This document shows, piece by piece, positions 404 to 63,189 of a stretch of DNA of 64,000 nucleotides. Numbering within the stretch: the stretch's first letter is position 1; each line of letters starts with the position of its first letter. Source of the DNA: Eledone cirrhosa (Eukaryota); contig OZ024742.1 of NCBI GenBank assembly GCA_964016885.1, positions 222,208,001 through 222,272,000 on the forward strand, in the 5' to 3' direction. Made by a program: the position numbers and the translations under genes. The notes under the pieces were generated by a model. The model had not been told where the DNA came from, did not search any database, and saw nothing but the letters and a program-made list of their open reading frames with translations.

Positions 404-630
404 ATAAACAATTAAGTTAAAAATGTACATCCACATATGTATACTGAAATACTAGTATGCATATGAATACACACACGTGTACATATGTAGATGTACCGAG
501 TTTTTCACTGGACACTTTACTGTGAGTGTCCAGCTATTCTGTATGTAAACACACAGACAAACCGGTTTTTAGAGTCATACTGGTTTTCGAGGAAACACCT
601 TTCCTCTATTCTCCAGAAAGCCAGACAAGG

Positions 631-675
631 AATATTGGACTAGTTTCGATGTTGTTACATCTCATCAGCAATATT
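631..675 (-). ncRNA. Minimal type I hammerhead ribozyme (inverted copy)
   Basis: Exact reverse complement of 1007-1051. Confidence 0.88.
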
Positions 676-1006
676 TACCTATCTTCCGGCCTTTCTAGAG
701 AATCGTAAAAGCACATATCGTTATATGCTTTTTCTATGAAAATTAGTAGTGGGCAGACTAATTTGCATAGAGCGTGAGTACGTACCGGTACATTTTTAAC
801 TTAATTGTTTAAGCGTCAGTCATACAAAAGTGAGTTACAAACGAAACGAAATTTAATTTCGTTTCGTTATTTGTTTTTATCGTCTCCGCTGAACCGGTAC
901 GTACTCACGCTCTATGCAAATTAGTCTGCCCACTACTAATTTTCATAGAAAAAGCATATAACGATATGTGCTTTTACGATTCTCTAGAAAGGCCGGAAGA
1001 TAGGTA

Positions 1007-1051
1007 AATATTGCTGATGAGATGTAACAACATCGAAACTAGTCCAATATT
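1007..1051 (+). ncRNA. Minimal type I hammerhead ribozyme
   Basis: AATATTG-CTGATGA-GATG(TAACAA)CATC-GAA-ACTAGT-C-CAATATT: 7-bp stem I, 4-bp stem II, palindromic ACUAGU stem III, GUC cleavage site at 1042-1044. Confidence 0.9.
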
Positions 1052-1339
1052 CCTTGTCTGGCTTTCTGGAGAATAGAGGAAAGGTGTTTCCTCGAAAACC
1101 AGTATGACTCTAAAAACCGGTTTGTCTGTGTGTTTACATACAGAATAGCTGGACACTCACAGTAAAGTGTCCAGTGAAAAACTCGGTACATCTACATATG
1201 TACACGTGTGTGTATTCATATGCATACTAGTATTTCAGTATACATATGTGGATGTACATTTTTAACTTAATTGTTTAAGCGTCAGTCATACAAAAGTGAG
1301 TTACAAACGAAACGAAATTTAATTTCGTTTCGTTATTTG

Positions 1340-1659
<320 letters not shown>

Positions 1660-4020: not shown

Positions 4021-4073
4021 GGGACCGTCCTGAAGAAGGCCAGTCAAGCCTGAAATACATAGACGGTTGTCCC
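4021..4073 (+). ncRNA. Minimal type I hammerhead ribozyme
   Basis: ACCGTC-CTGAAGA-AGGC(CAGTCAA)GCCT-GAA-ATACAT-A-GACGGT, AUA site at 4059-4061. Lies in a non-microsatellite island (3732-4215) between (TG)n and (TA)(TG)n. Confidence 0.85.
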
Positions 4074-5229: not shown

Positions 5230-5249
5230 GATATAGATATATATATATA

Positions 5250-5987
5250 GAATATAATATGTTGAGAAGGTAACACACCAGAGAGAGACATATAGTGCGT
5301 TATCAATAATACAGGGAAAAACCACTATATTATTGATAACGCACTATCAACATATTATATTCTAAAGGGCTCAGGATCTCTTCCCCTTTGAGCACATTAT
5401 TTACAGGGAATAACGACGGCCTATGCCTCCGTTAATTTATCGTGATATTTCGCTCCTAACAACAGCCTTTCCTATCTCTGTTTTGTTGAGCACTCTTCTC
5501 TGAGTGGCTTTGGGCTGCCCTTTCTAGCAGTTCGTCTCTCAGAGGCCACTGGTTCACTGCCCTTAAACACGCTGTGACTTCTCTCTCCCACGTGTAGCTG
5601 GACAGTCAATTGTAAAATTCTCTTAGTGTTGTCTGAAATGTATAGCCTTACACACGCTGATGAACCGAGACTAACATTTCTTTCAACAATTTTTCTGGTG
5701 AAACATATCTCTGGATTTGTACGTGTGTTATATAGTTATAGAGGTATTTATTTACGCTTTAATTTATATTTTTAATTATCGTGTCTATAGTCTGCCTTTC
5801 ATAGGTTATAGATTCCATACACTGGTGGTTTTTTCCCTGTATTATTGATAACGCACTATATATCTCTCTCTGGTGTGTTACCTTCTCAACATATTATATT
5901 CTAAAGGGCTCAGGATCTCTTCCCCTTTGAGCACATTATTTACAGGGAATAACGACGGCCTATGCCTCCGTTAATTTATCGTGATAT
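5250..5987 (+). mobile_element. Penelope-like pLTR/retrozyme-like element: ~539-nt unit with terminal redundancy and inverted 5' segment
   Basis: 5348-5447 is repeated at 5887-5986. 5250-5325 is the reverse complement of 5825-5902. Internal hammerhead; (TA)n on both sides. Confidence 0.78.
5650..5728 (+). ncRNA. Type I hammerhead ribozyme
   Basis: ACACACG-CTGATGA-ACC...GGT-GAA-ACATATC(TCTG)GATTTGT-A-CGTGTGT: 7-bp stem I, GUA site at 5719-5721. Confidence 0.85.
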
Positions 5988-9096: not shown

Positions 9097-9502
9097 GGGG
9101 GGGGGATAAATAAAAAAAGTTTCAGTACTGGAATAGTACTTTATTTTATCAACGTTGAAGGGATTAAAAGTATAGTTAACCTCGGCAGGATTTGAACTCA
9201 GAGAACCAAAACGAATACCACAAGTTACCAACCGACATTCTGTCTGTTAATTCACCGTCTTACATGAATGGGTCCGTAACTTTGGTGGAATCGTAAGGGC
9301 ACCGTAGTAATATAAAGCGTATCAGGGGCATTTTATTATTCCTAGTGGTGCCCATGCCCTCAGCGGGTCTGAATACAGCCGATTTCTTCTAGAGACGTGA
9401 AATAGAAAGAGAGAGTGTGTGTGATAAGAAGGAAGCGAGAAAGAAATATAGAGGTAGAATTGACTCCAGTAATGGTCTAGTACTTATTTTATAAACCTCA
9501 AA

Positions 9503-10075
9503 ATAATTGTTTCTACTTTTGGTACAAGGCCAACAATTATCCCAGTACATTACTGGTGCTTTGTTTTATCTACCCCCGTAAGGATGAAAGGCAAAGTTAA
9601 CCTCGGCGGGATTTTGAACTCAGACCGTAAAGGGGCACAACTCTATGCTACAAAGCATGGTGTCCGACCCTCTACCGATACTCCCAATCCACCGCCCTCA
9701 ATTATAAACCTTAAAATAATTGTTTCTACTTTTGGCACAAGGCCAGCAATTACCCAGTACATTACTGGTACTTTATTTTATCCACCCCATAAGGATGAAA
9801 GGCAAAGTTAACCTCGACGGGATTTGAACTCAGAACGTAAAGGGACGTAACTATGCTAGAAAGCCAATTCACCTCCCTATAAACCTTAAAATAATTGTTT
9901 CTACTTTTGGCATAAGGCCAACTAATACCCAGTGTATTACTGGTACTTTATTTTATCAACCCCGTAAGGATGAAAGGCAAAGTTAACCTCGGCGGGATTT
10001 GAACTCAGAATAGCAGGGGCCGTAACTCAATGCGTCAAAGCATGGCGTCCGAAGCTCTACCGATACTGCCAATCC
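9503..10075 (-). mobile_element. Tandem array of three Meta-like tRNA SINEs
   Basis: Three head-to-tail copies of the SINE seen at 2088-2432, each preceded by ATAAACCT(T/C)AAAATAATTG. Confidence 0.85.
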
Positions 10076-12498: not shown

Positions 12499-12937
12499 AA
12501 CTAGACCTAAAAAATGCGCAAGCTCAAAAGAGCCACAATAAACCTTCAAAAGTATGGGACTAGAGTTGTTGCACAAAAATATTGTAATCATTATCTATCG
12601 TACATTCTGTCGCATCCTTTTATAAAAAAAGAGACTCATAACGAACTGAAGACGACACGATAATTATTTAAGCTAATGTTCAATATCTCATATTAGATGT
12701 TTAGTAATGATTAATACGAAATGCACTTAAACCAAATTCTATATTATAAATTTACTTAAATAATTATCGTGTTGTCTTGAGTTCGTTATGAGTCTCTTTT
12801 TTATAAAAGGATGCCACAGAATGTACGATAGATAATGATTACAATAATTTTTAGCAACAACTCTAGTCCCACACTTTTGAAGGTTTATTATAACATTCTG
12901 TGGCTCTTTTGAGCTTGCGTATTTTTCAGGTCTAGTT
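12499..12937. mobile_element. Fold-back element with ~175-bp inverted arms ending in CTAG
   Basis: Arms 12499-12672 and 12755-12937. No hammerhead core found. Confidence 0.7.
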
Positions 12938-20384: not shown

Positions 20385-21106
<722 letters not shown>

Positions 21107-22800: not shown

Positions 22801-23687
22801 GTTTCTTTATGTGTACGTGTGTCCGATACACACAGACACATATTTATATGTATTTCAACTCAAAAAATTCAATTGATATATATATATATATATATATATA
22901 GTAATAATAATAAATTTGAAGACTAAAATCCAAAGAGGGCTCGATAAGGATAAATATATATATCAAATATATAAGAACAGTAGAGCAAATATATGTACAT
23001 ATTTGGATGCGTGTATGTATTTATTTAATATCAATTACCTCTGTATTGTATTTTATTTACTTTATTCTTAACTCTGAAGCGGAGAATCATTCGGTTTCCT
23101 AGTTAGAATTTTAGTCTACGACTTCAGTTATACCATTTGTGTGGTTTTGTCTTTGCATGCAATTGTTCTCTACGCTCCACATTTGACGTATTATCTTCGT
23201 TTTTTCCGTTCATTGCCAGAGAACGTCTCTATGAACCACCTAAGAGAACATTAGTCTACGACTTCTTTTATACCATAAACGTGGTTCTGTCTTTGCGTGT
23301 AATTGTTTTTCACCGCTCCTATTAATGACGTATTATATTCGTTTTTCCCGTTCTTTGCCAGGGAACGTTTCCACGAACCAAAGTATCGTCTTCCTGTCTT
23401 CCTCCGGTTGCAACGTTTTTTGAAATATCCACTTCTGCGTTCACAGATTGACTTTGTTAGTTTCAGAAGATCCTGTTAAAGGTGAAAGCAGCGATTCTTT
23501 GCTTAAATTTTAATCTGTTATTTTAATAAATATATATATATATATTGTTATACTTTGGGAGGGTCATGTTGCCAATAAGAAACACACGCACCAGTTGCTT
23601 TCACTTCAATTTATTATAATAAATTTATAAATTTATAAATTTCTGGTTGGTTGGTTGGTTCCACAACCAGATAGTTGTTTATATATT

Positions 23688-23730
23688 GTCATAGTTCTTT
23701 CGTCACACACTCTGTGACCTCTTCAGTGAC
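23688..23730 (-). ncRNA. Minimal type I hammerhead ribozyme (inverted copy)
   Basis: Reverse complement of 24039-24081. Confidence 0.8.
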
Positions 23731-24038
23731 TGGGGATTCTTTTCTTTGTTTTTTGTGCCTCTCCTTTGTTCTGTCCTACGCCATTTTGTTTCTGTGTGTG
23801 TGTTGTGTGCTCAGCAACATCACAACTTACAATTAAGGACAAAATGAAAACACACACACACATAGAACAAACAACCAACCAGTAACATGTAAATAAACAA
23901 ATAAATAAATGAACATAAACACACACAGACACCCGGATGTGGCGCATGCGCAGACTGAGCACACAACACACACACAGAAACAAAATGGCGTAGGACAGAA
24001 CAAAGGAGAGGCACAAAAAACAAAGAAAAGAATCCCCA

Positions 24039-24081
24039 GTCACTGAAGAGGTCACAGAGTGTGTGACGAAAGAACTATGAC
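24039..24081 (+). ncRNA. Minimal type I hammerhead ribozyme
   Basis: GTCA-CTGAAGA-G-GTCACA(GAGTG)TGTGAC-GAA-AGAACT-A-TGAC; CUA site at 24075-24077. Confidence 0.8.
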
Positions 24082-24277
24082 AATATATAAACAACTATCT
24101 GGTTGTGGAACCAACCAACCAGAAATTTATAAATTTATAAATTTAATATAATAAATTGAAGTGAAAGTAACTGGTGCGTGTGTTTCTTATTGGCAACATG
24201 ACCCTCCCAAAGTATAACAATATCGGTTTCAACACACGATTTCAGATAAAGAATCTTGCTAAACAAATTCAGAAACG

Positions 24278-29950: not shown

Positions 29951-30362
29951 ATATATATATATGTATATATATATCATCATCATCATCATCATCAGTTAAC
30001 GTCCATGGTTAGACAGGTCCTATTTCGAGGCAAGTTGTGTCAGGTGATATAGGGGTATTTCTGGTTGGTCTTCTACGACTGGATGCCTTTCCTAACGCCT
30101 TCTTAATGCCAACCACATTTAATATAGAAATGGCTTCTATAGGACTAGAACTGTTTCATTCGTATGTATGTGTTTGTCTATAGGTGCTTAAGTGTGAATG
30201 TTCTTTATGCCTTTGCATTAATGTGTATATTTCTCTAAATATAGTTTTTTCAAAGAATCCCTGTTCTTAAAATCCCTTGGCCAACGACTTCCACCGAACC
30301 CAATCACCTCCTTCCCCTACCACCAGAAAAAGGTACAAATACCAACATACCACAATGACAGT

Positions 30363-30416
30363 TGGCTTTCCTGATGATTTCCTTCGAATGAAACAGTTCT
30401 AGGCCTGTAGAAGCCA
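30363..30416 (+). ncRNA. Type I hammerhead ribozyme
   Basis: TGGCTTTC-CTGATGA-TTTC(CTTC)GAAT-GAA-ACAG..CTGT-A-GAAGCCA. Same family as 159-209; partial inverted copy at 30121-30162. Confidence 0.8.
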
Positions 30417-30542
30417 TTTCTATATTGAATATAGTATATACTCTATTATGTACCTTTCTTACTGTGATTACCCCCGCTTGAACCCGGAATACCCATCTCT
30501 CTCTCCATATATATGATGTTCAACCATCTGGCAGGAAGGTAT

Positions 30543-30585
30543 ACGATGCTGACGATAGCTAATAAGCTTGAAACTAGTACATCGT
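30543..30585 (+). ncRNA. Minimal type I hammerhead ribozyme
   Basis: ACGATG-CTGACGA-TAGCT(AATA)AGCTT-GAA-ACTAGT-A-CATCGT; GUA site at 30577-30579. Confidence 0.87.
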
Positions 30586-31028
30586 TCCTGTGTCAGTGTT
30601 GAACAAAAAGGTGACATGGTTGCCTAAACACTGTACGGCGTAATTCGGGCTGTTTGTTTGTTTACAAACAAACAAACCGAGCATTATAATAAATGTTCGG
30701 TAAACCAATACGTGCATATATATATATGTGTGCATGTATGTATATATACATACTACTGTACGTCTGTATACATATATGTATGTACGTATACATACATACT
30801 TACATTTCAGTAAGTGCCGTACTAAGAGTGAGAAATGAAATTTCGTTTCATTCTATTCCATTTATATATATATATATATATAGGAACCAGTAAGACCCCG
30901 ACAGCTGAGCTCAAGCCGTTTCGACGGCTAATTCTGGACTAATAATTCCTATTACCCACTCTACTACCCCAAGTATTGAGTACTTTGGTGCGTTATGGTC
31001 CACCTGGTTCCTTACCACATTTCCTTTG

Positions 31029-41257: not shown

Positions 41258-41293
<36 letters not shown>

Positions 41294-41313
41294 ATAAACA
41301 ACATAAGATAATT

Positions 41314-41376
41314 ATTTCATTTACCAGTGGTTTCTTGAAGACAGATATTTATGCCTGTCTTCATTCATCAGAAAAT
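41314..41376 (-). ncRNA. Type I hammerhead ribozyme (weak stem I)
   Basis: ATTTT-CTGATGA-A-TGAAGACAG..CTGTCTTCA-A-GAA-ACCACTGGT-A-AATGAAAT. The inverted copy at 42218-42280 has CTGATCA (G8C). Confidence 0.7.
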
Positions 41377-41825
41377 ATTTATTTATGAAGTAGTAATAAT
41401 GGATTTGAAAACAGAGTATAGGATAAATGAAAGTGAGGCAGAAATAAAATAACGGGCAAAAATTGAGGGGGAAAAAAAAAAGTAAATATCCAAATACATA
41501 CACATACACAAACTCACTCATATACGTAATAGAACGTAAACATATACATTCACACATAAATATATGTGCATCTGCATGGAAATACAAATACACCACATAT
41601 GCGTGTGATCTGTCACTCACATATGCGCAACGAATCATTGGGAAGTAGTTGGGGGACCAGATATAAATAAATATAATCAAAAAACAAGGATAGGAAATAA
41701 AATGAAAGCAAAAAGGGACGGGTTGACAACGAAAGGTGGGGGGGGGGATTAATAAATATATATATTTACCCATATTATTCAAAATATTAATAAATGAAAG
41801 ATATTCACATAATCAAAATATATGC

Positions 41826-41889
41826 TTTATTATATATATTTCAAAGGTACTGTGTTGTTTTTTTTCCCAGTAAGTCTTCATCAGATAAA
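41826..41889 (-). ncRNA. Type I hammerhead ribozyme
   Basis: TTTAT-CTGATGA-AGACTTACTG..CAGTACCTTT-GAA-ATATATAT-A-ATAAA; imperfect stem II base. Confidence 0.68.
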
Positions 41890-42378
41890 ATATATGATTT
41901 GATATATGACATACCGCTACTGTCTTGATTATACAATTCCAGTATACATACATACTGTTATTTTATTTCAGCCTCACTTTCATTTATCATATACTCTGTT
42001 TTCAAATCCATTATTACTTTGGCAGTATCGGTGGAGGGTCGGACGCCATGCTTTCCAGCATAGTTACGTCCCTTTACGATCTGAGTTCAAATCCCGCCGA
42101 GGTTGACTTTGCCTTTCATCCTTACGGGGTCGATAAAATAAAGTACCAGTAATGCACTGGATAATTGCTGGCCTTGTGCCTAAAGTAGAAACAATTATTA
42201 CTACTTCATAAATAAATATTTTCTGATCAATGGAGACAGACATAAATATCTGTTTTCAAGAAACCACCGGTAAATGAAATAATTATTTTATGTTGTTTAT
42301 TACATAACTAAAAAGCTCTGTAGCCTACATAGAGCACTCTCTTTTCCTTTACCTTTCCTACGGAAATACTTCATTTAT

Positions 42379-44489: not shown

Positions 44490-46190
44490 ATCATCATCAT
44501 CATCATCACCGTTTTACGTCCGTTCTTCCACGCTAGCATGGGTTAGACGGGTTGTCCTGTTGTGGGCAGTGTCTGGTCGGCTGACCATGCCTTGCTCATA
44601 CAGGAACTGATCTGGCTTGATTTCTACAGCTGGATGCCCTTCCTAACACCAACCTCATTTACAGTGAGTGCTGGGTGCTTTTTCGTGGCGCCTACACGTC
44701 CACTTTACAGTGTGGGCTGGGTGCTTTTTTGCCGTGGCACCTCCACGACCACCTTGCGGTGGGGGGGGGGGGAGTGGGGGCATATTGTTTATATGCTTCA
44801 GCATGTACCCATGGGAGGTCGGGTACCCTGTATTACTGCGTGACGCCAGAAGTCACGGTCGTGTGTCATTGACTTTGAGAGGTGTAGTTGGGTAAGGTCG
44901 GCTTTTATCACCTCATCCCAAGTCATCTTGGGTCTCCCCACTCCGCGGTTTCCATCAACTTCTAGTGCTCTGCACCTTTTTATGCAGCTGTCATCCTTCA
45001 TACGCATCACATGTCCATACCAGCGTAACCGCCTCTCCTGCACGCAGCATTTGATTCCTCTTATGCTCAGTCTCTCTCTCAATTCCTTTATGCTTTGTCG
45101 TTCACGTATATTACTGTTACACATCCATCGGAGCATGCAGGCTTCGTTTCTCTCTAATCTACGTAAGTCTTCCACCTTCAGCGCCCAGGTCTCACTACCA
45201 TGCAACATCGCTGTTCGGATACACGCATCATACAGTCTGCCTTTCATTCTGAGGGAGAAGCCTTTTGCAGCTAGCAGTGGTAGTAGTTCCCTAAACTTCT
45301 TCCATCCCGTTCTTACCCTAGTTATTGTACTATCTGAGCACCCACCTCCGTTGCTAATTCGGTCACCTAGGTAGCAGAAGCTGTCTACTGTTTCTACAGG
45401 GCCCTCCCAGAGATTGGTGGTACTTGTTTCCTGTGGCTGTTTGCTTGCTGTTTCAGCACAGCTGCTGCATGTGAATCCTACATTCTTAATTAAGCTTCCT
45501 GAGATCCCACTACATCTCTTGTGTACCCATTGTTTGCATTTGGGGCAGAGAATGGAGTTCCTACCTACACCTTTCCTACATACTGAGCAAGGCCATTTCC
45601 CTGAGGGGATCTGGGTTCTGTTTTCTCGTCTACTTATAAGGACCTTAGTCTTTGTCATGTTGACTTTGAGGCCCTTTCTCTCTAGTCCCTGCTTCCAGGT
45701 TTGGAATTTATTCTCTAGTTCTACCATAGATTCAGCTATGAGTGCGAGGTCATCAGCATACAGGAGTTCCCATGGGCATCCGGTCTTAAACTCCTCCGTT
45801 ATTGCCTGCAGGACTATGATGAACAGGAGAGGGCTAAGAACAGAGCCCTGGTGGACCCCAACCTGTACGCTAAATTCCTCGCTATACTCATTGCCAATCC
45901 TAACTTTGCTGACTGCTCCCCTATACATGGCTTGTACCGCTTTCACAAGCCATTCATCTACTCCTAGTTTTCTAAGAGCCCACCAGATTACTGCACGTGG
46001 AACTCTGTCAAAGGCTTTCTCAAGGTCGACAAATGCCAAGTAGAGTGGCTTACTTTTAGCTAGGTACTTTTCCTGTAATTGCCTCACAAGGAAGAGGGCA
46101 TCAGTGGTGCCTTTCCCTGGTACAAACCCAAATTGCATCTCGTCTATATTCACCCGGTCCCTAATCAGCTGTGCTATAACTCTTTCTGTT
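44490..46190 (-). mobile_element. 5'-truncated RTE LINE with 3' UTR and (GAT)n tail
   Basis: Open RT frame, repetitive 3' UTR ending in GGACGTAAAACGG-(TGA)n; the 5' end abuts (TA)n. Confidence 0.92.
44798..46153 (-). CDS. RTE-clade reverse transcriptase (partial) with inserted PHD-like finger
   Basis: QFGF, FVDLEKAFDRV, GVHQGSVLSPLLF, LLYADDL, FCYLG, RRLRWYGHV; CSVC..LCPKCKQWVHKRC..FTCSSC C4HC3 pattern after the YADD region. Confidence 0.93.
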   Translation of the reverse strand: MNIDEMQFGFVPGKGTTDALFLVRQLQEKYLAKSKPLYLAFVDLEKAFDRVPRAVIWWALRKLGVDEWLVKAVQAMYRGAVSKVRIGNEYSEEFSVQVGVHQGSVLSPLLFIIVLQAITEEFKTGCPWELLYADDLALIAESMVELENKFQTWKQGLERKGLKVNMTKTKVLISRRENRTQIPSGKWPCSVCRKGVGRNSILCPKCKQWVHKRCSGISGSLIKNVGFTCSSCAETASKQPQETSTTNLWEGPVETVDSFCYLGDRISNGGGCSDSTITRVRTGWKKFRELLPLLAAKGFSLRMKGRLYDACIRTAMLHGSETWALKVEDLRRLERNEACMLRWMCNSNIRERQSIKELRERLSIRGIKCCVQERRLRWYGHVMRMKDDSCIKRCRALEVDGNRGVGRPKMTWDEVIKADLTQLHLSKSMTHDRDFWRHAVIQGTRPPMGTC

Positions 46191-47282
46191 ATATATATAT
46201 ATATATTAGTATGGTATGGACAGTATTATATACCTGTGTGTGTGTATCTGTATGGTATAGCCAGTTTTATAAACCTAAGTATATATAGTTACGATATAAG
46301 ACTAGGCAATTTCATCAGGTGTTATTTGCAGAATTATGTAACAGGATTACATTGAATCCAAACATGCAATGGAAGATAGGAGATAGAGAAAAAATAGAAG
46401 AGAGAGAGGGAGAGAGTGAGAGAGAGAGGGGGGAGAGAAAGAGAGAGAGAGGGCATTCAGTCATAGAAAACTTGCTAAACAAAGGGCCATGAGGACCCTT
46501 CAACTGTATCAAAGACATGATAACTGCCCTAATGTTGGTGTCACAATAAAATGCACTTGGTCAAGTATGTAATCATATGTCAGTGAGATGCTGGCTCATC
46601 TATTAGGTCTGTAGTCCTGCTTGATCACTGACCCCATCTCTGACAACCCCTCCAACCCTTGCTAGCAGATAAAACAGACATTGAATGATGATGATGATGA
46701 TGATGTGTGTGTGTGTGTATGTATGTGTACGTATATATCAGTATAGTATAGCTAATTATATAAACCTGTGTGTGTGTGTATCAGTATGATATGTCTAGTT
46801 CATTTTGTCAAATAAAGAATAAAAATTTAAATAAATTTCCAGCTTGCAGCAAAGGCTGATAAGAAGTATAGAGAGGTAGAGAACTGTGATAATAGTGCAA
46901 GTGATAGCTTTAATGTAGCTGAGCTCAGAATCTTAATGAGGAAGATATTACTGGATACTTTTACTTCCAAGCACATCAGGAAAATAAAACTGAGATAAAC
47001 CAGACTGAATAATATAGATTTAACATGAAAAGTGTAACTAAAATCACAAGAAAAACTTTGCTATTTACATTGATGTATTTATAAAGTAAAGGACACAATA
47101 AGTTCACTCTTTAGGTATGTTTACAAGAACAGCTTGCCTTCGCTCACTATTATATTATTATATAATAGTTTTTACACATCGTTTTGTTAAATAAATGCAA
47201 TTATGTCTATGAGCTTAAGAGATTTGCTTCACAATTATAAGGTTTGGGGTCCAGTCCTATTGTATGAGTCATTGGGTAATTA

Positions 47283-51672: not shown

Positions 51673-51680
<8 letters not shown>

Positions 51681-52061
51681 TAAATCATGTCTTTAGAATC
51701 ATCAGATAAAATATATACTATTTCTTCTTCTAATTAGCATAATTAACCATATAAAAAATCAATTGGATCAAGCTATAAGAAGAAAGGCTCTTATGGAGAA
51801 ATCTCCGACAAATAACCGAACGTAGCCTCTTCGCGGTGGCCCCGATCGAATATTTATCCAACATGTCGAAATGTTGGATAAATACTCGATTGGGGCCACC
51901 GCGAAGAGGCTACGTTCGGTTATTTGTCGGAGATTTCTCCATAAGAGCCTTCCTTCTTATAGCTTGATCCAATTGATTTTTTATATGGTTAATTATGCTA
52001 ATTAGAAGAAGAAATAGTATATATTTTATCTGATGATTCTAAAGACATGATTTATGATATA
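51673..52061. mobile_element. ~190-bp near-perfect palindrome in (TA)n
   Basis: Arms 51673-51864 and 51871-52061 with a 6-nt loop. Contains TATTTTAT-CTGATGA (52030-52036) as in the 41172 HHR, but no matching GAAA. Confidence 0.78.
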
Positions 52062-52157
52062 TTGCTCTGATTTTTTAATTTATTAATTCTTCATAGAGCT
52101 TAAAAGTGACCAGTTGCAACATGTATATATCTATAACTTTATGTATATGTTAACCTT

Positions 52158-59131: not shown

Positions 59132-59576
59132 CGTGTAAGTGAGTAGAGTAGCGTGTGTGTGTGTTTGTTGTATGTATGAGTGTTGCTGTGTGCACGCATA
59201 TGTATGCGTGTGTGTGTATGTCGTACGTATAAGTGTCAATAAGTAATTTTTTTTTTTTTTTTTTTTTTTGCGCGGGGACATAGAAATAATCGGGCTGGAT
59301 GCCCGATCGCGCAGTTAAACCACTGGGAGTGAAGAACCCCTAGCCCTTGTCAGGGTATTCTTCTAGGAGAAGGCATCTCAGGAAACTGGGTTAACACCGA
59401 TATAAAACCTGCGGCTCAGTAGTTACCGATGATGTTGATCTTTTCTTCTTTTCGGGTTATAGCTACTGTCGCTCAGAGAGTGGGATTGGTTCAGTGCACA
59501 GTCTTTCCTCACTTTAAAAATATTCGTCACGCACAGGCATTGCACGAGTGCATTAATAATTATTAATAGTGTACTA

Positions 59577-59607
<31 letters not shown>

Positions 59608-59645
59608 TATTATTACTTTTTTTTTTTTTTTTTTTTCCCAATTCA

Positions 59646-61833
59646 ATGATGATCCAGAACAATGTAAACGAGATAATTGCCAATTTGGGTTCTGGAACAA
59701 AAAGGATCATTGGCAATAAGGGCAGGGGCCCCAAGTTATCACAACCTGGGCCCGCCCGTCATCGTGCCATTGTAATAGAGCCAAACAGGGCATTTAGTCT
59801 TGGCTGCTGGAACGTACGGACGCTGCTTGACAGGGATTCTTTGGAGCGTCCTGAACGAAGGACCGCTCTTGTTGCAAAGGAGCTTCGACGTTACGATCTT
59901 GACATCGTGGCTTTGTCTGAGACGAGGTTAGCTGGAGATGGTCATCTTACGGAATTTTGTGGAGAATATACATTCTTCTGGAAAGGAAGAGATGAAGGAA
60001 CCAGAAGAGAGGCTGGGGTAGGATTTGCTGTTAAGACTGTACTGGTGAATAAATTAGAAGAATTCCCAGTGGGGATTAGTGAGCGTCTTATGTCCATGAG
60101 AGTTCCGCTGGACAAGGGAAGATATGCTACCCTGGTGAGTGTGTATGCTCCAACTATGAATTCTGTCGATGAAGAAAAACTGTCCTTTTACCATGCCTTG
60201 AAAGGTGTTTTAAGAAATATCCCTCAGGCAGACAAAGTCATCGTGCTTGGTGACTTTAATGCTAGAGTGGGTAGGGATTTTAACACATGGAATGTAATCG
60301 GAAGGCATGGGGTGGGAAAGTGTAACAGCAATGGTATGCTCTTGCTGCAGATGTGTGAGGAGCTGGATCTGTGTGTTACCAACACGATGTTCCAACAAAA
60401 GAACAAATTCAAGACCACATGGATGCATCCTGCATCTAAGGAATGGCATCTTTTGGACTACGTCCTAGTCAGGATGCGTGACAGACAGGATGTGCAGTGT
60501 GTTCGTGTTCTTCGTGGAGCTGAGTGCTGGACGGACCACCGCCTGGTACGCGCAAAAGTGAATCTAATCACCAAACGTAAAATCCGGGCTCCTGGTATTA
60601 CCCTGCCCAAAAGATTGAATGCTGCTCGTCTTAAGGATAAAAATGTGAAGAGGACATTGGAAGAAGAGATGCAGGCTGCAGATCTTGGTGAGGATTGGCC
60701 GACCCTTAAAAAGTCGGTTTATGATGTAGGCAGACGTGTTCTGGGATTGGTGCAGAGAAAACATCAGGACTGGTTTAATGAGAAAGATGTGCATATAGAT
60801 GACTTGTTGGCTGATAAGAGGCGTGCTCTGTCACGCTACTTGACGGCAAAACCACAGGAGAGGAATACGTTGCATGAGGAGCTCAGGGATGTAAAATCAC
60901 GTGTTAGGCGGAGTCTTTCTCAGATGAAGGATCAGTGGTGGAGTGAGAAGGCTGGTGAGATACAAACTGCGTCTGATTGCAATAACACAAAGCTGTTGTA
61001 CAGTCTCTTGCGTGAGGTTTATGGACCGTCTTCTTCTCTGGTGACACCGATTCGCAGCAAGGATGGCAAAGAACTTCTTCGTGACTCACAGGGAATTCTA
61101 CGAAGGTGGCGAGAGCACTTTGATGATCTTTTGAATCAGCCGTCTGTCGTCAGTGAAGATTTCCTCAATCTCATTCCGGAAAGTCCTGTGAAAGTAGCTC
61201 TCGCAGAACCTCCGACACTTGTGGAGGTTGCAGTGGCTATTTCGAAGCTGAACAGTGGAAGATCTCCAGGTATGGATGGCATACATGCTGAGCTCCTACA
61301 ATATGGTGGTGAGAGACTCCTGCAACATCTTCACTCTCTGTTTGGAAGGATATGGGCTAATGAATCCGTGCCTGAGGACTGGAGAGATGCATTAATGGTG
61401 GTCTTGTACAAGGGAAAGGGTAACAGGAATGATTGTGGGAACTACAGAGGTATATCATTGCTTTCTGTCGTGGGGAAAGTTTTATGTAGGGTGCTTCTGG
61501 ACCGTCTGCTGACACACATTGCAGATTGTGTCCTTCCTGAAAGTCAATCTGGTTTTCGTGCTGGACGCGGCACTACTGATATGATCTTCTCAGCTAGACA
61601 GCTCCAGGAGAAGTGCATTGAACAGGGCTTGGATCTGTATCAGGTTTTTGTCGATCTGACAAAGGCTTTCGATACTGTCAACAGAGATGCATTATGGAAG
61701 GTTCTCCAGAAACTTGGTTGCCCTGATAAGTTCCTTGCTTTAGTTAGGTCTTTCCATGACGACATGAAGGCTTGGGTTAATGTCGGAGGTAACATGTCGG
61801 AGCCTATCTCAGTAAAAAATGGAGTGAAACGGG
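59646..61833 (+). CDS. RTE ORF, N-terminal part: apurinic endonuclease and start of RT
   Basis: GCWNVRTL, ALSETR, SVYAPT, LGDFNARVG, LLDYVL, TDHRLV, NYRGISLLS, SQSGFR, FVDLTKAFDTV. Frame shifts at NGVK|GDIPAPTLF. Confidence 0.93.
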
Positions 61834-63189
61834 GATATTCCAGCACCGACCCTGTTTGCCATATACTTTGCAATGGTTTTCTGTATTGCATTCAGGAATT
61901 GCGAGCATGGTGTTTACATCCGATATCGAACCTCAGGCAGCATATTTAACATCAGGCGCTTTGCTGCGAAGACAAAAGTATTTACATCAGTCATAAGAAA
62001 CCTCTTGTATGCAGATGATTGCGATCTTGTAGCGCACACAGAGAGTGATATGCAGCACATTTTGAATGTATTTTCTGACGCTTGCACTGCCCTGGGTTTG
62101 ACTGTCAGTCTCAAGAAAACCGTCGTCATGTACCAACCTGCCCCTGGTAGGCAGTACACTGAACCAAACATCTATGTGTATGGCAAACGACTTGGAGTGG
62201 TTGATCAGTTTGTCTACCTGGGAAGCACTGTCAATCGATACGGCAACCTTGACAGTGAAATCTCACTTAGGATTAGGAAAGCAAGTGATGCTTTCGGAAA
62301 GCTAGAAAGGCGACTCTGGGGTCGGCGAGACATATGCAGGAGGACAAAGGTAAAGGTGTACAGGGCATGTGTACTCTCTTGTCTTCTTTATGCCTGCGAG
62401 ACCTGGGTCACATATCGACGCCACCTTAAGCAATTGGAGCGTTTCCATCAGATGTGTCTCAGACGGATCCATGGCGTTCACTGGAGGGACCACATCAGTG
62501 ATGTCGAGATTTTGGAAAGCTCTATGTGTGACAGTATAGAAGCTCTTGTGCTTAAGCAGCGACTCCGTTGGAGTGGTCACCTTGCCAGGATGAAGGATTC
62601 TAGAATACCAAAACAACTCTGCTATGGAGAGTTGGTTAAAGGAAAACGACCGCCACATAAACCAAAAAAGAGGTATAAGGATTCCTTGAAAGCCTCTCTG
62701 AAAGACGCTAACATCTCTGCTGATACATGGGAAAATATTGCTGCTGATCGTAATAAATGGAGAAAGACTGTATATGAGGGAAAAGTTGCCTTTGAGGCAT
62801 CTCGAATCGCACACGAGAAAGTAAAGCGGGACGTGAGGAAGGGCATTGCTGTTGCACTTCCAGACGGCGAGGGTCCTCCTATGTTTCTGACATGCAGCGT
62901 CTGTGCGAGACTCTGCCTAAGCAAAGCTGGACTCGAAAGTCATCTTCGCAGTCATAAAGTAAGACCAGTGGTTGACTACCAGACTGCTGTTGGAGATGCT
63001 ACTCATCATGCTTGCCAAACATGTGGTAGAGAATGTAAATCAGCAGGAGGACTCAAGCGACATGCAAAAGTACACGAACTCCAACCACAGCCGACTATTC
63101 CCAGTAAATGTTTTGGTTGCCGACTCTGTGCAAGACATTTTAGATCATTGGCTGGGCTAAAAAGCCACATTCGATCGCAGCACTGTTAG
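61832..63189 (+). CDS. RTE ORF, C-terminal part: RT, thumb and three C2H2 zinc fingers
   Basis: GDIPAPTLF, LLYADDC, FVYLGS, LRWSGH; CSVC..HLRSH, CQTC..HAKVH, CRLC..HIRSQH. Confidence 0.93.

Follow-up and report, generated by a model that had tools for sequence, protein, structure and literature searches.

Penelope-like elements (PLEs) leave insertions with a typical anatomy, comprising a partial tandem, an adjacent inverted copy truncated at its 5' end, a one-sided tail and a bias towards (TA)n, and non-autonomous PLEs with pseudo-LTRs (pLTRs) are also known (PMC8557442; this and the other papers below are cited from their accessible parts). Self-priming (snap-back) is a published hypothesis for PLE inversions (PMC3846280), and the repeated copying of a circle was proposed in 2014 for PLE tandems (PMC4209133). 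In vitro work on one PLE describes a protein that nicks both strands of AT-rich DNA and extends each of them; it initiates at two internal sites of the RNA, the distance between which equals the tail, and uses uncleaved RNA, hammerhead cleavage not being needed (PMC11167929).

Tandem low-GC units that carry type I hammerheads and are expressed as circles are described as non-LTR retrozymes, with PLEs as their proposed mobilisers (PMC7229834), and a preprint argues that animal retrozymes are non-autonomous PLEs (Li, Clavereau and Pollet, 10.64898/2026.07.22.740005). Both this class of element and the circle model put forward in the first-pass annotation of the locus described here are already in print. 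In the accessible parts of these sources, the case for PLEs is built on co-occurrence and pLTR similarity, and the locus offers a test case of which enzyme mobilises animal retrozymes, as well as of the way in which PLE inversions arise and of the strand that serves as their template.

The locus lies at positions 405-1346 of a 64,000-nt stretch of Eledone cirrhosa DNA, hereafter the window. We consider it most probably a recent insertion of a non-autonomous Penelope-type retroelement (a non-LTR retrozyme) made with a borrowed PLE reverse transcriptase/endonuclease. The 466-nt element, although not an autonomous PLE, works like a PLE insertion and has the sequence characters of a retrozyme.

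Architecture of the 466-nt element and its hammerhead

The features of the locus are given below, where X1, X5 and X22 stand for public sequencing runs.

297-404, no strand: left (TA)n array, putative insertion target (TA x55 at 297-406)
405-789, minus strand: inverted, 5'-truncated copy of 893-1277, whose outer end (1277) abuts (TA)n without a tail (arm alignment; 1277-to-(TA)n end in five X1 contigs)
615-686, minus strand: second type I hammerhead copy, in the inverted arm (Rfam)
788-789, no strand: head-to-head junction, 2 nt common to both arms, adjoining the short palindromes 893-898, 897-904 and 1252-1259 of the unit
788-880, plus strand: upstream partial copy, a pseudo-LTR-like terminal redundancy of 93 nt
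881-1346, plus strand: full 466-nt non-coding unit, 36% GC, predicted to be highly self-paired
996-1067, plus strand: type I hammerhead (Rfam, script and hand; compensatory change 1022/1033 in X1, X22 and X5)
1278-1346, plus strand: 69-nt one-sided tail between the 3' ends 1277 and 1346, with a hairpin at 1306-1334
1347-1611, no strand: right (TA)n array, putative insertion target (TA x134 at 1344-1611)

The first-pass annotation had described the plus strand as about 1.2 copies of a 466-nt unit, and 405-789 as an apparently perfect inverted copy of 893-1277. Both descriptions hold, with the end of the unit corrected from 1347 to 1346: the direct repeat 788-880 = 1254-1346 is identical at 93 of 93 positions with a period of 466, which makes the plus-strand segment 788-1346 (559 nt) 1.20 units long, and the arms, spaced 103 nt apart, are complementary at 385 of 385 positions. 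When the arms are lengthened to 388 nt, one mismatch appears, at 790/892. The overlap at the inversion point is 24 nt. The mirror ends at 1277, and the tail and the flank lie outside it, save for a 15-nt mirror at 290-304/1366-1380 (seven unique bases plus TA repeats), which is inside the flanking TA arrays. Each of these two 15-nt sequences occurs once in the window, and they possibly derive from templated synthesis at the target. No target-site duplication is readable in the (TA)n arrays flanking 405-1346.

The earlier view that identical arms imply a very recent insertion is fair as a bound, although it presumes that the arms have not been homogenised. The 478 paired positions without a difference limit the divergence to about 0.3% per lineage (hand calculation); if the octopus calibration given in the accessible part of PMC13282606 applies and the arms have not been homogenised, the insertion would be younger than about 1 million years.

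The absence of coding potential noted earlier is borne out, as the longest stop-free frames of the unit, read as a circle, are 57 aa on the plus strand and 60 aa on the minus strand. The unit folds with a predicted energy of -163 kcal/mol (z = -9.5), and 0 of 100 shuffles folded equally well. Rfam microRNA matches over the unit hairpins were rejected, being far below their gathering scores.

The hammerhead is matched by the Rfam family HH9 (Hammerhead_HH9) at 996-1067 on the plus strand with 38.9 bits and an E value of 1.5e-7, below the gathering score of 52. To this hammerhead, the only one previously noted, we add the identical copy at 615-686 on the minus strand, so that the locus has two hammerheads in opposite orientation. 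Helix I is formed by 1007-1013/1045-1051 (7 bp), the core starts at 1014 and is intact (by hand and by script), helix II is formed by 1021-1025/1030-1034 (5 bp), and helix III is minimal and lies on a 6-nt palindrome at 1038-1043. The cut is predicted after C1044 of the GUC, and on this point the hammerhead model agrees with the earlier prediction. Because helix III is minimal and palindromic, cutting would be efficient only as a dimer, for which the predicted helix III duplex between two copies has an energy of -4.8 kcal/mol. With one hammerhead per strand at 405-1346, this copy would be unable to release a monomer by double cleavage.

The element thus carries the characters of non-LTR retrozymes, namely a type I hammerhead with an intact core (below the Rfam gathering score), a short, low-GC, self-paired, non-coding unit, and head-to-tail copies. 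It shares with the metazoan members of this class (Cervera and de la Pena 2020, PMC7229834; 10.64898/2026.07.22.740005) the non-coding tandem unit with one type I hammerhead per unit, a GC content under 45% (here 36%), high self-pairing and a short palindromic helix III. Its length of 466 nt is within the 51-972 bp range of the preprint (10.64898/2026.07.22.740005) but exceeds that of the 170-400 nt circles reported in 2020 (PMC7229834) and, with fewer than two direct hammerheads at 405-1346, the copy is not an "active" retrozyme by the rule of the preprint. We found an inverted arm combined with a tail described for a retrozyme neither in the main texts of these two sources nor by literature search: the main text of PMC7229834 has no inverted arms or tails of retrozymes (the word "inverted" occurs 0 times), and that of the preprint uses "inverted" once, in a reference title, and "tail" 0 times.

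The endonuclease-positive PLEs (Penelope/Poseidon, Neptune, Nematis and Hydra), as far as they are described in the accessible parts of PMC8557442, PMC3846280 and PMC11167929, share with the locus the partial-tandem pseudo-LTR with a hammerhead in the repeat, the adjacent head-to-head inverted 5'-truncated copy, the tail at one end, the microhomology or palindrome at the junction, and the AT-rich or (TA)n target. They differ from it in that the 466-nt element has no RT or GIY-YIG ORF and that its tail measures 69 nt, compared to 30-40. Naiads, in the accessible literature, favour (TA)n and are without canonical hammerheads. MRC1 of Chlamydomonas and similar non-autonomous PLEs are also non-coding, with pLTRs and head-to-tail insertions, but they belong to the Chlamys group, described as mostly without hammerheads in the accessible part of PMC8557442. 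The first-pass annotation had named a PLE only as what might refute its model, namely that all copies are the colinear 3' ends of a long autonomous PLE, whereas the whole layout is the standard anatomy of a PLE insertion (PMC8557442).

Family copies in public sequencing runs

According to a run listing by sampled words, 20 of 24 public runs share part of the stretch and four of the 24 share half or more, the best ones sharing 0.87-0.91 of the sampled words; X21, from the sample of X4, has next to none of them. No RNA run is listed among those sharing the words, which has no bearing on expression, and the 14 other runs with less than half of the words are not taken as evidence of range. Four of the 24 listed runs (X1, X4, X5 and X22) were aligned to the unit 881-1346. 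X22, which has the species label of the best-sharing run and comes from another study, consists of genomic RAD raw reads from a library type that samples unevenly, and 3124 of its reads fall on the unit, 726 of them at 99% or more identity and 1811 at 95-99%. The junction that leads from 1346 back to 881 is present in genomic DNA in 750 X22 reads with 88 different starts, where the depth at 1345-1346 is about 790, and one contig each of X1, X4 and X5 runs across it. The 466-nt unit is therefore a multicopy family whose head-to-tail junctions are common in genomic DNA. Pattern scans for the element in metagenome contigs and in viral contigs gave 0 matches.

In X4, the unit is represented by one contig of 495 nt, the ends of which join into a 465-nt cycle with no branch, at a depth of 9.7 and with eight other letters and one gap. 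As the kind of this run is unrecorded, the closed contig may represent either an RNA circle or a uniform tandem array. In X1, five contigs exit the unit at 1277 onto (TA)n and one at 1273, so that the recurrent end on (TA)n is the same end at which the inverted arm of the window meets (TA)n. Hand comparison showed two X1 contigs that fold back: the first does so at the palindrome 1252-1259, where the direct segment of the window also starts (788 = 1254), and the second at 1046-1051, which is two bases away from the cut site. Each case is a single contig that may be a library fold-back.

Two X1 contigs run past 1345 into unlike, non-repeat sequence, and one X5 contig is unlike before 1283; they could be plain flanks or a link to a longer partner element. 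They bear on the view that no independent small element exists and that a long autonomous PLE has left its truncated 3' end (pLTR region) at the locus, a view in keeping with the fact that PLE insertions are mostly 5'-truncated and have pLTRs with hammerheads (PMC4209133, accessible part). However, about 750 of the roughly 790 X22 reads at 1346 return straight to 881, although RAD may under-sample other continuations past 1346, X4 closes at 465 nt without a branch, and the partial tandem of an autonomous element would enter its ORF after the pLTR. We judge this origin unlikely and retain a small non-autonomous element.

Several ends in X22 were considered as ends of the element and rejected. 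The loose or molecule ends at 922, 938-941, 1269-1272 and 1319-1321 fall on AATT words and were read as artefacts of the restriction library, and the starts at 1137/1139 fit a restriction site made by A>G changes at 1136 and 1140, the identity of the enzymes being our assumption in both cases. Opposite-strand joints at 881/1102 (5 reads) and 881/1226 (3 reads) were seen in numbers too small for use.

The copies of the family differ within the hammerhead. The helix II pair A1022-U1033 is changed to U-A in 44%/32% of the X1 depth, in 174/591 and 156/563 X22 reads, and at both sites of the sole X5 contig, and this change is a compensatory covariation. The cleavage site 1044 is C in the window copy and in X4, and U in 76% of the X1 depth, in 344 of 535 X22 reads and in the sole X5 contig, which weakens the case for strong selection on cutting. 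When 27 of the 40 variant rows shown were set against the predicted structure, in a check made without a null and with the 13 clustered A>G sites left out and used in the A>G analysis below, 12 kept a pair, two were compensatory, eight were unpaired and five broke a pair. Only the 1022/1033 pair is counted here as structural evidence, because A>G changes keep pairs by wobble.

The dominance of the head-to-tail arrangement in X22 and the loss of the cleavage-site C in most copies would also be expected of a unit of satellite DNA that has spread as DNA (by unequal exchange, rolling-circle DNA or break repair) and carries a relic hammerhead. This explanation is highly improbable in view of the defined 3' ends on (TA)n, the helix II covariation, the PLE-type inverted arm, and the strand bias of the X22 changes (32 A>G against 9 T>C), all of which speak against it.

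Related elements in the window

The layout recurs in a second hammerhead element, at 5248-5987, for which blastn shows no similarity to the 466-nt unit. Its inverted arm (5248-5325 versus 5825-5903) matches at 77 of 79 positions, with a short templated insert at the junction; its direct segment has an exact 102-nt redundancy with a period of 539 nt; a one-sided tail of about 84 nt follows, and (TA)n is found on both sides. It has a type I hammerhead candidate at 5657 with a long helix III, a fold z of -3.0 and an overlap at the inversion point of about 17 nt. Within 6 kb, the physical signature of PLE insertion is seen on two non-coding hammerhead units that are unrelated to each other.

Seven more inverted repeats, with arm identities of 82-98%, mostly adjoin (TA)n or (AG)n tracts or are close to them; they are likely fold-back insertions of the 3' ends of further PLE-type families.

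1653-1952: further long inverted repeat
2522-2666: further long inverted repeat
12499-12937: further long inverted repeat
20669-20850: further long inverted repeat
23542-24223: further long inverted repeat
41288-42306: further long inverted repeat
51673-52062: further long inverted repeat

These elements are relevant to whether the palindrome at 405-1346 is real or an artefact, by fold-back or in assembly, of a single long read. The arms show no difference at all, the best runs share 0.87-0.91 and not all of the sampled words, and the first-pass annotation had proposed that the palindrome be confirmed with independent long reads. The locus junction 893/1254 is absent among the joints listed for X1, X4, X5 and X22, with 95 loose ends beyond that listing, and the palindrome has no independent read support at this locus. 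An artefact, however, should not stop its mirror at 1277, excluding the tail and the flank apart from the 15-nt mirror, or place the outer end of an arm at a recurrent end of the family, with the arms 103 nt apart. It would also have to repeat this layout with imperfect arms and family-typical ends, given the unrelated 5248-5987 element, whose arms differ at 2 of 79 positions, and the seven inverted repeats with diverged arms beside or near (TA)n. For this reason we regard an artefact as very unlikely and take the fold-back as part of the insertion.

A diverged relative of the 466-nt unit is found at about 30520-30865, with a decayed hammerhead (core at 30549) and a similar string of hairpins, and it ends on (TA)n at the position that matches 1346. 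A third repeat family, at 106-296 and 30310-30490 (with an inverted piece at 30117-30162), has a hammerhead-like motif with its core at 165, and each time a member of the 466-nt family follows directly downstream; this adjacency suggests either nested insertion into the (TA)n end or a shared origin. At 4023-4070, a further type I hammerhead candidate of minimal form was observed, with its core at 4030 and a helix I of 7 bp; it is part of a stretch of about 480 nt that is bounded by a (GT)n array on one side and (TA)n/(GT)n arrays on the other. A relaxed hammerhead scan gave eight matches in the window, two of which belong to the 466-nt element itself and two of which are weak (A/T-only helix I); 60 shuffles gave 0.1 matches on average and never more than 1. 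At E values up to 0.01, Rfam lists none of the other hammerhead candidates within 4000-34000.

Two reverse transcriptase frames were considered as PLE partners and rejected as LINE-like: 44801-46225 (minus strand) encodes an RT with a PHD finger, and 59463-63186 (plus strand) encodes an AP-type endonuclease and RT and continues in a second frame with C2H2 zinc fingers. Among the 140 of 146 window frames screened with Pfam, only LINE-like RTs or RT fragments were found, with no GIY-YIG and no autonomous PLE. The tandem-repeat listing of the window has 145 rows, and this microsatellite density, together with the LINE-like RT frames, points to an animal; the repeats may resemble those of octopus. 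A SINE-like repeat of about 190 nt is abundant and frequently forms short tandems; it occurs at 2080-2433 and in more than 10 other places (such as 9502-10072 and 42010-42203), one copy interrupting the inverted repeat 41288-42306.

Proposed insertion mechanism and strand-biased changes

The sequence of events that we propose would start with a tandem source locus transcribed on the hammerhead strand, which would yield an RNA of more than one unit. A PLE enzyme would nick (TA)n and prime cDNA at the internal sites 1346 and 1277 by target-primed reverse transcription, on a template that would be intact at the ribozyme site, whether as an uncleaved multimer or as a re-ligated circle. The direct cDNA would measure 559 nt and pass through the unit junction, and the inverted arm would be either a second cDNA from the other nicked strand, primed at 1277 and joined by the 2-nt microhomology, or the product of snap-back of the first cDNA.

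That more than one unit was copied is evident from the locus. Both arms cross the cleavage site and no insertion end is found at 1044/1045; as the arms run through that site, the template was presumably intact there. A distance of 69 nt separates the two 3' ends, 1277 and 1346, each of which abuts (TA)n. Against the proposed explanation stand the lack of an autonomous PLE partner in the 140 of 146 screened frames, a tail that, at 69 nt, exceeds the 30-40 bp given for PLEs in the literature, the U in place of C at the cleavage site of most family copies, the five of 27 checked variants that break a predicted pair, and the absence of the locus junction among the joints listed for the four runs.

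The first-pass annotation saw in the terminal redundancy the footprint of a circular or oligomeric RNA template. A template of more than one unit stands, but the redundancy is not specific to a circle, since 750 genomic reads show the same junction in DNA, and with a tandem array in genomic DNA a read-through transcript suffices. An RNA circle would thus be compatible with the locus and would not be required. The sub-case in which a monomeric 466-nt circular RNA was copied past its own junction, with the inversion made by snap-back of the same cDNA, is a real possibility that we nonetheless hold short of probable. It would account for arms that both cross the cleavage site, and for their identity (385/385) despite a mixed family whose minority alleles (e.g. 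at 1170 and 1203) are common to both arms; such sharing points to a single template molecule or a homogeneous source. The self-closing 465-nt cycle of X4 and the X1 fold-back contigs at 1252-1259 and 1046-1051 fit it too, and metazoan retrozymes are described as making circles (PMC7229834, accessible part). However, the abundant head-to-tail DNA junctions make a circle unnecessary, a uniform tandem array would yield the same closed contig in X4, the run kind of which is unrecorded, and no insertion end lies at 1044/1045.

Snap-back, also suggested earlier for the inversion, fits the geometry, with the first cDNA agreeing at its 3' end with four of the five positions 890-894; priming from both nicked target strands fits as well. 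Snap-back alone leaves unexplained why the arm stops at 1277, and because this is the recurrent end of the family we slightly favour a two-primer origin of the inverted arm. The small overlap at the inversion point is shared with L1 twin priming, in which an inversion is made by two primers, one from each target strand. At the present locus, the inverted part duplicates the direct part, which requires a more-than-unit template or two templates. A literature search on twin priming with Penelope inversions gave papers that are unrelated by title and abstract. As the unit is short, young, multicopy and polymorphic, the alleles of the arms can be compared across insertions and the strand of its A>G changes can be read.

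On the hammerhead strand, the genomic reads of X22 show A>G at 32 places and T>C at 9 (P 1.7e-4), and A>G makes up 23 of the 40 variant rows shown, with 47 more rows beyond these. The base 5' of the change is A or T at 22 of the 23 listed sites, compared to 95 of the 146 A positions of the unit (P 3e-4), and at 15 of 16 when runs are collapsed (P 0.007). The changes form clusters, each single-copy, at 1097-1116 (about 112 X22 reads from one start, with 12 other differences) and at 1164-1166. ADAR prefers the 5' neighbours U > A > C > G and is promiscuous on long perfect duplexes (PMC11019741 and PMC5625713, accessible parts), and the A>G clusters of X22 have an ADAR-like context. In the monomer fold, 11 of the 23 sites are paired (48%), compared to 63% of all A, so that a longer duplex would be needed; a transcript through the fold-back locus is predicted to pair the whole hammerhead, which would provide one.

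These observations lead us to a tentative and rather doubtful reading, in which the host genome would be saturated with unrelated PLE-mobilised hammerhead retrozyme families that leave the full PLE footprint, and fold-back insertions would give rise to long double-stranded RNA that is hyper-edited by ADAR, the edited sense RNA being reverse-transcribed into the genome. The bias is absent in X1 (6:3), X4 (4:1) and X5 (6:9), which argues against it, as do the non-independence of the A>G sites and a RAD cut site seemingly made by two A>G changes, such that the library would enrich a few such copies; a sequencing or chemistry artefact may also be involved. Prior reports of ADAR-edited retrozymes, or of edited retrotransposed genomic copies, were found neither by title nor by abstract in a search that left most subscription papers outside. 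If the reading were true, the A>G clusters would be a fossil record of the RNA intermediate, the hammerhead (sense) strand would have been the template, contrary to the idea that PLEs use an antisense template, and ADAR would act as a heritable mutator of a ribozyme retroelement. The seven further inverted repeats of the window would be a rich source of double-stranded RNA.
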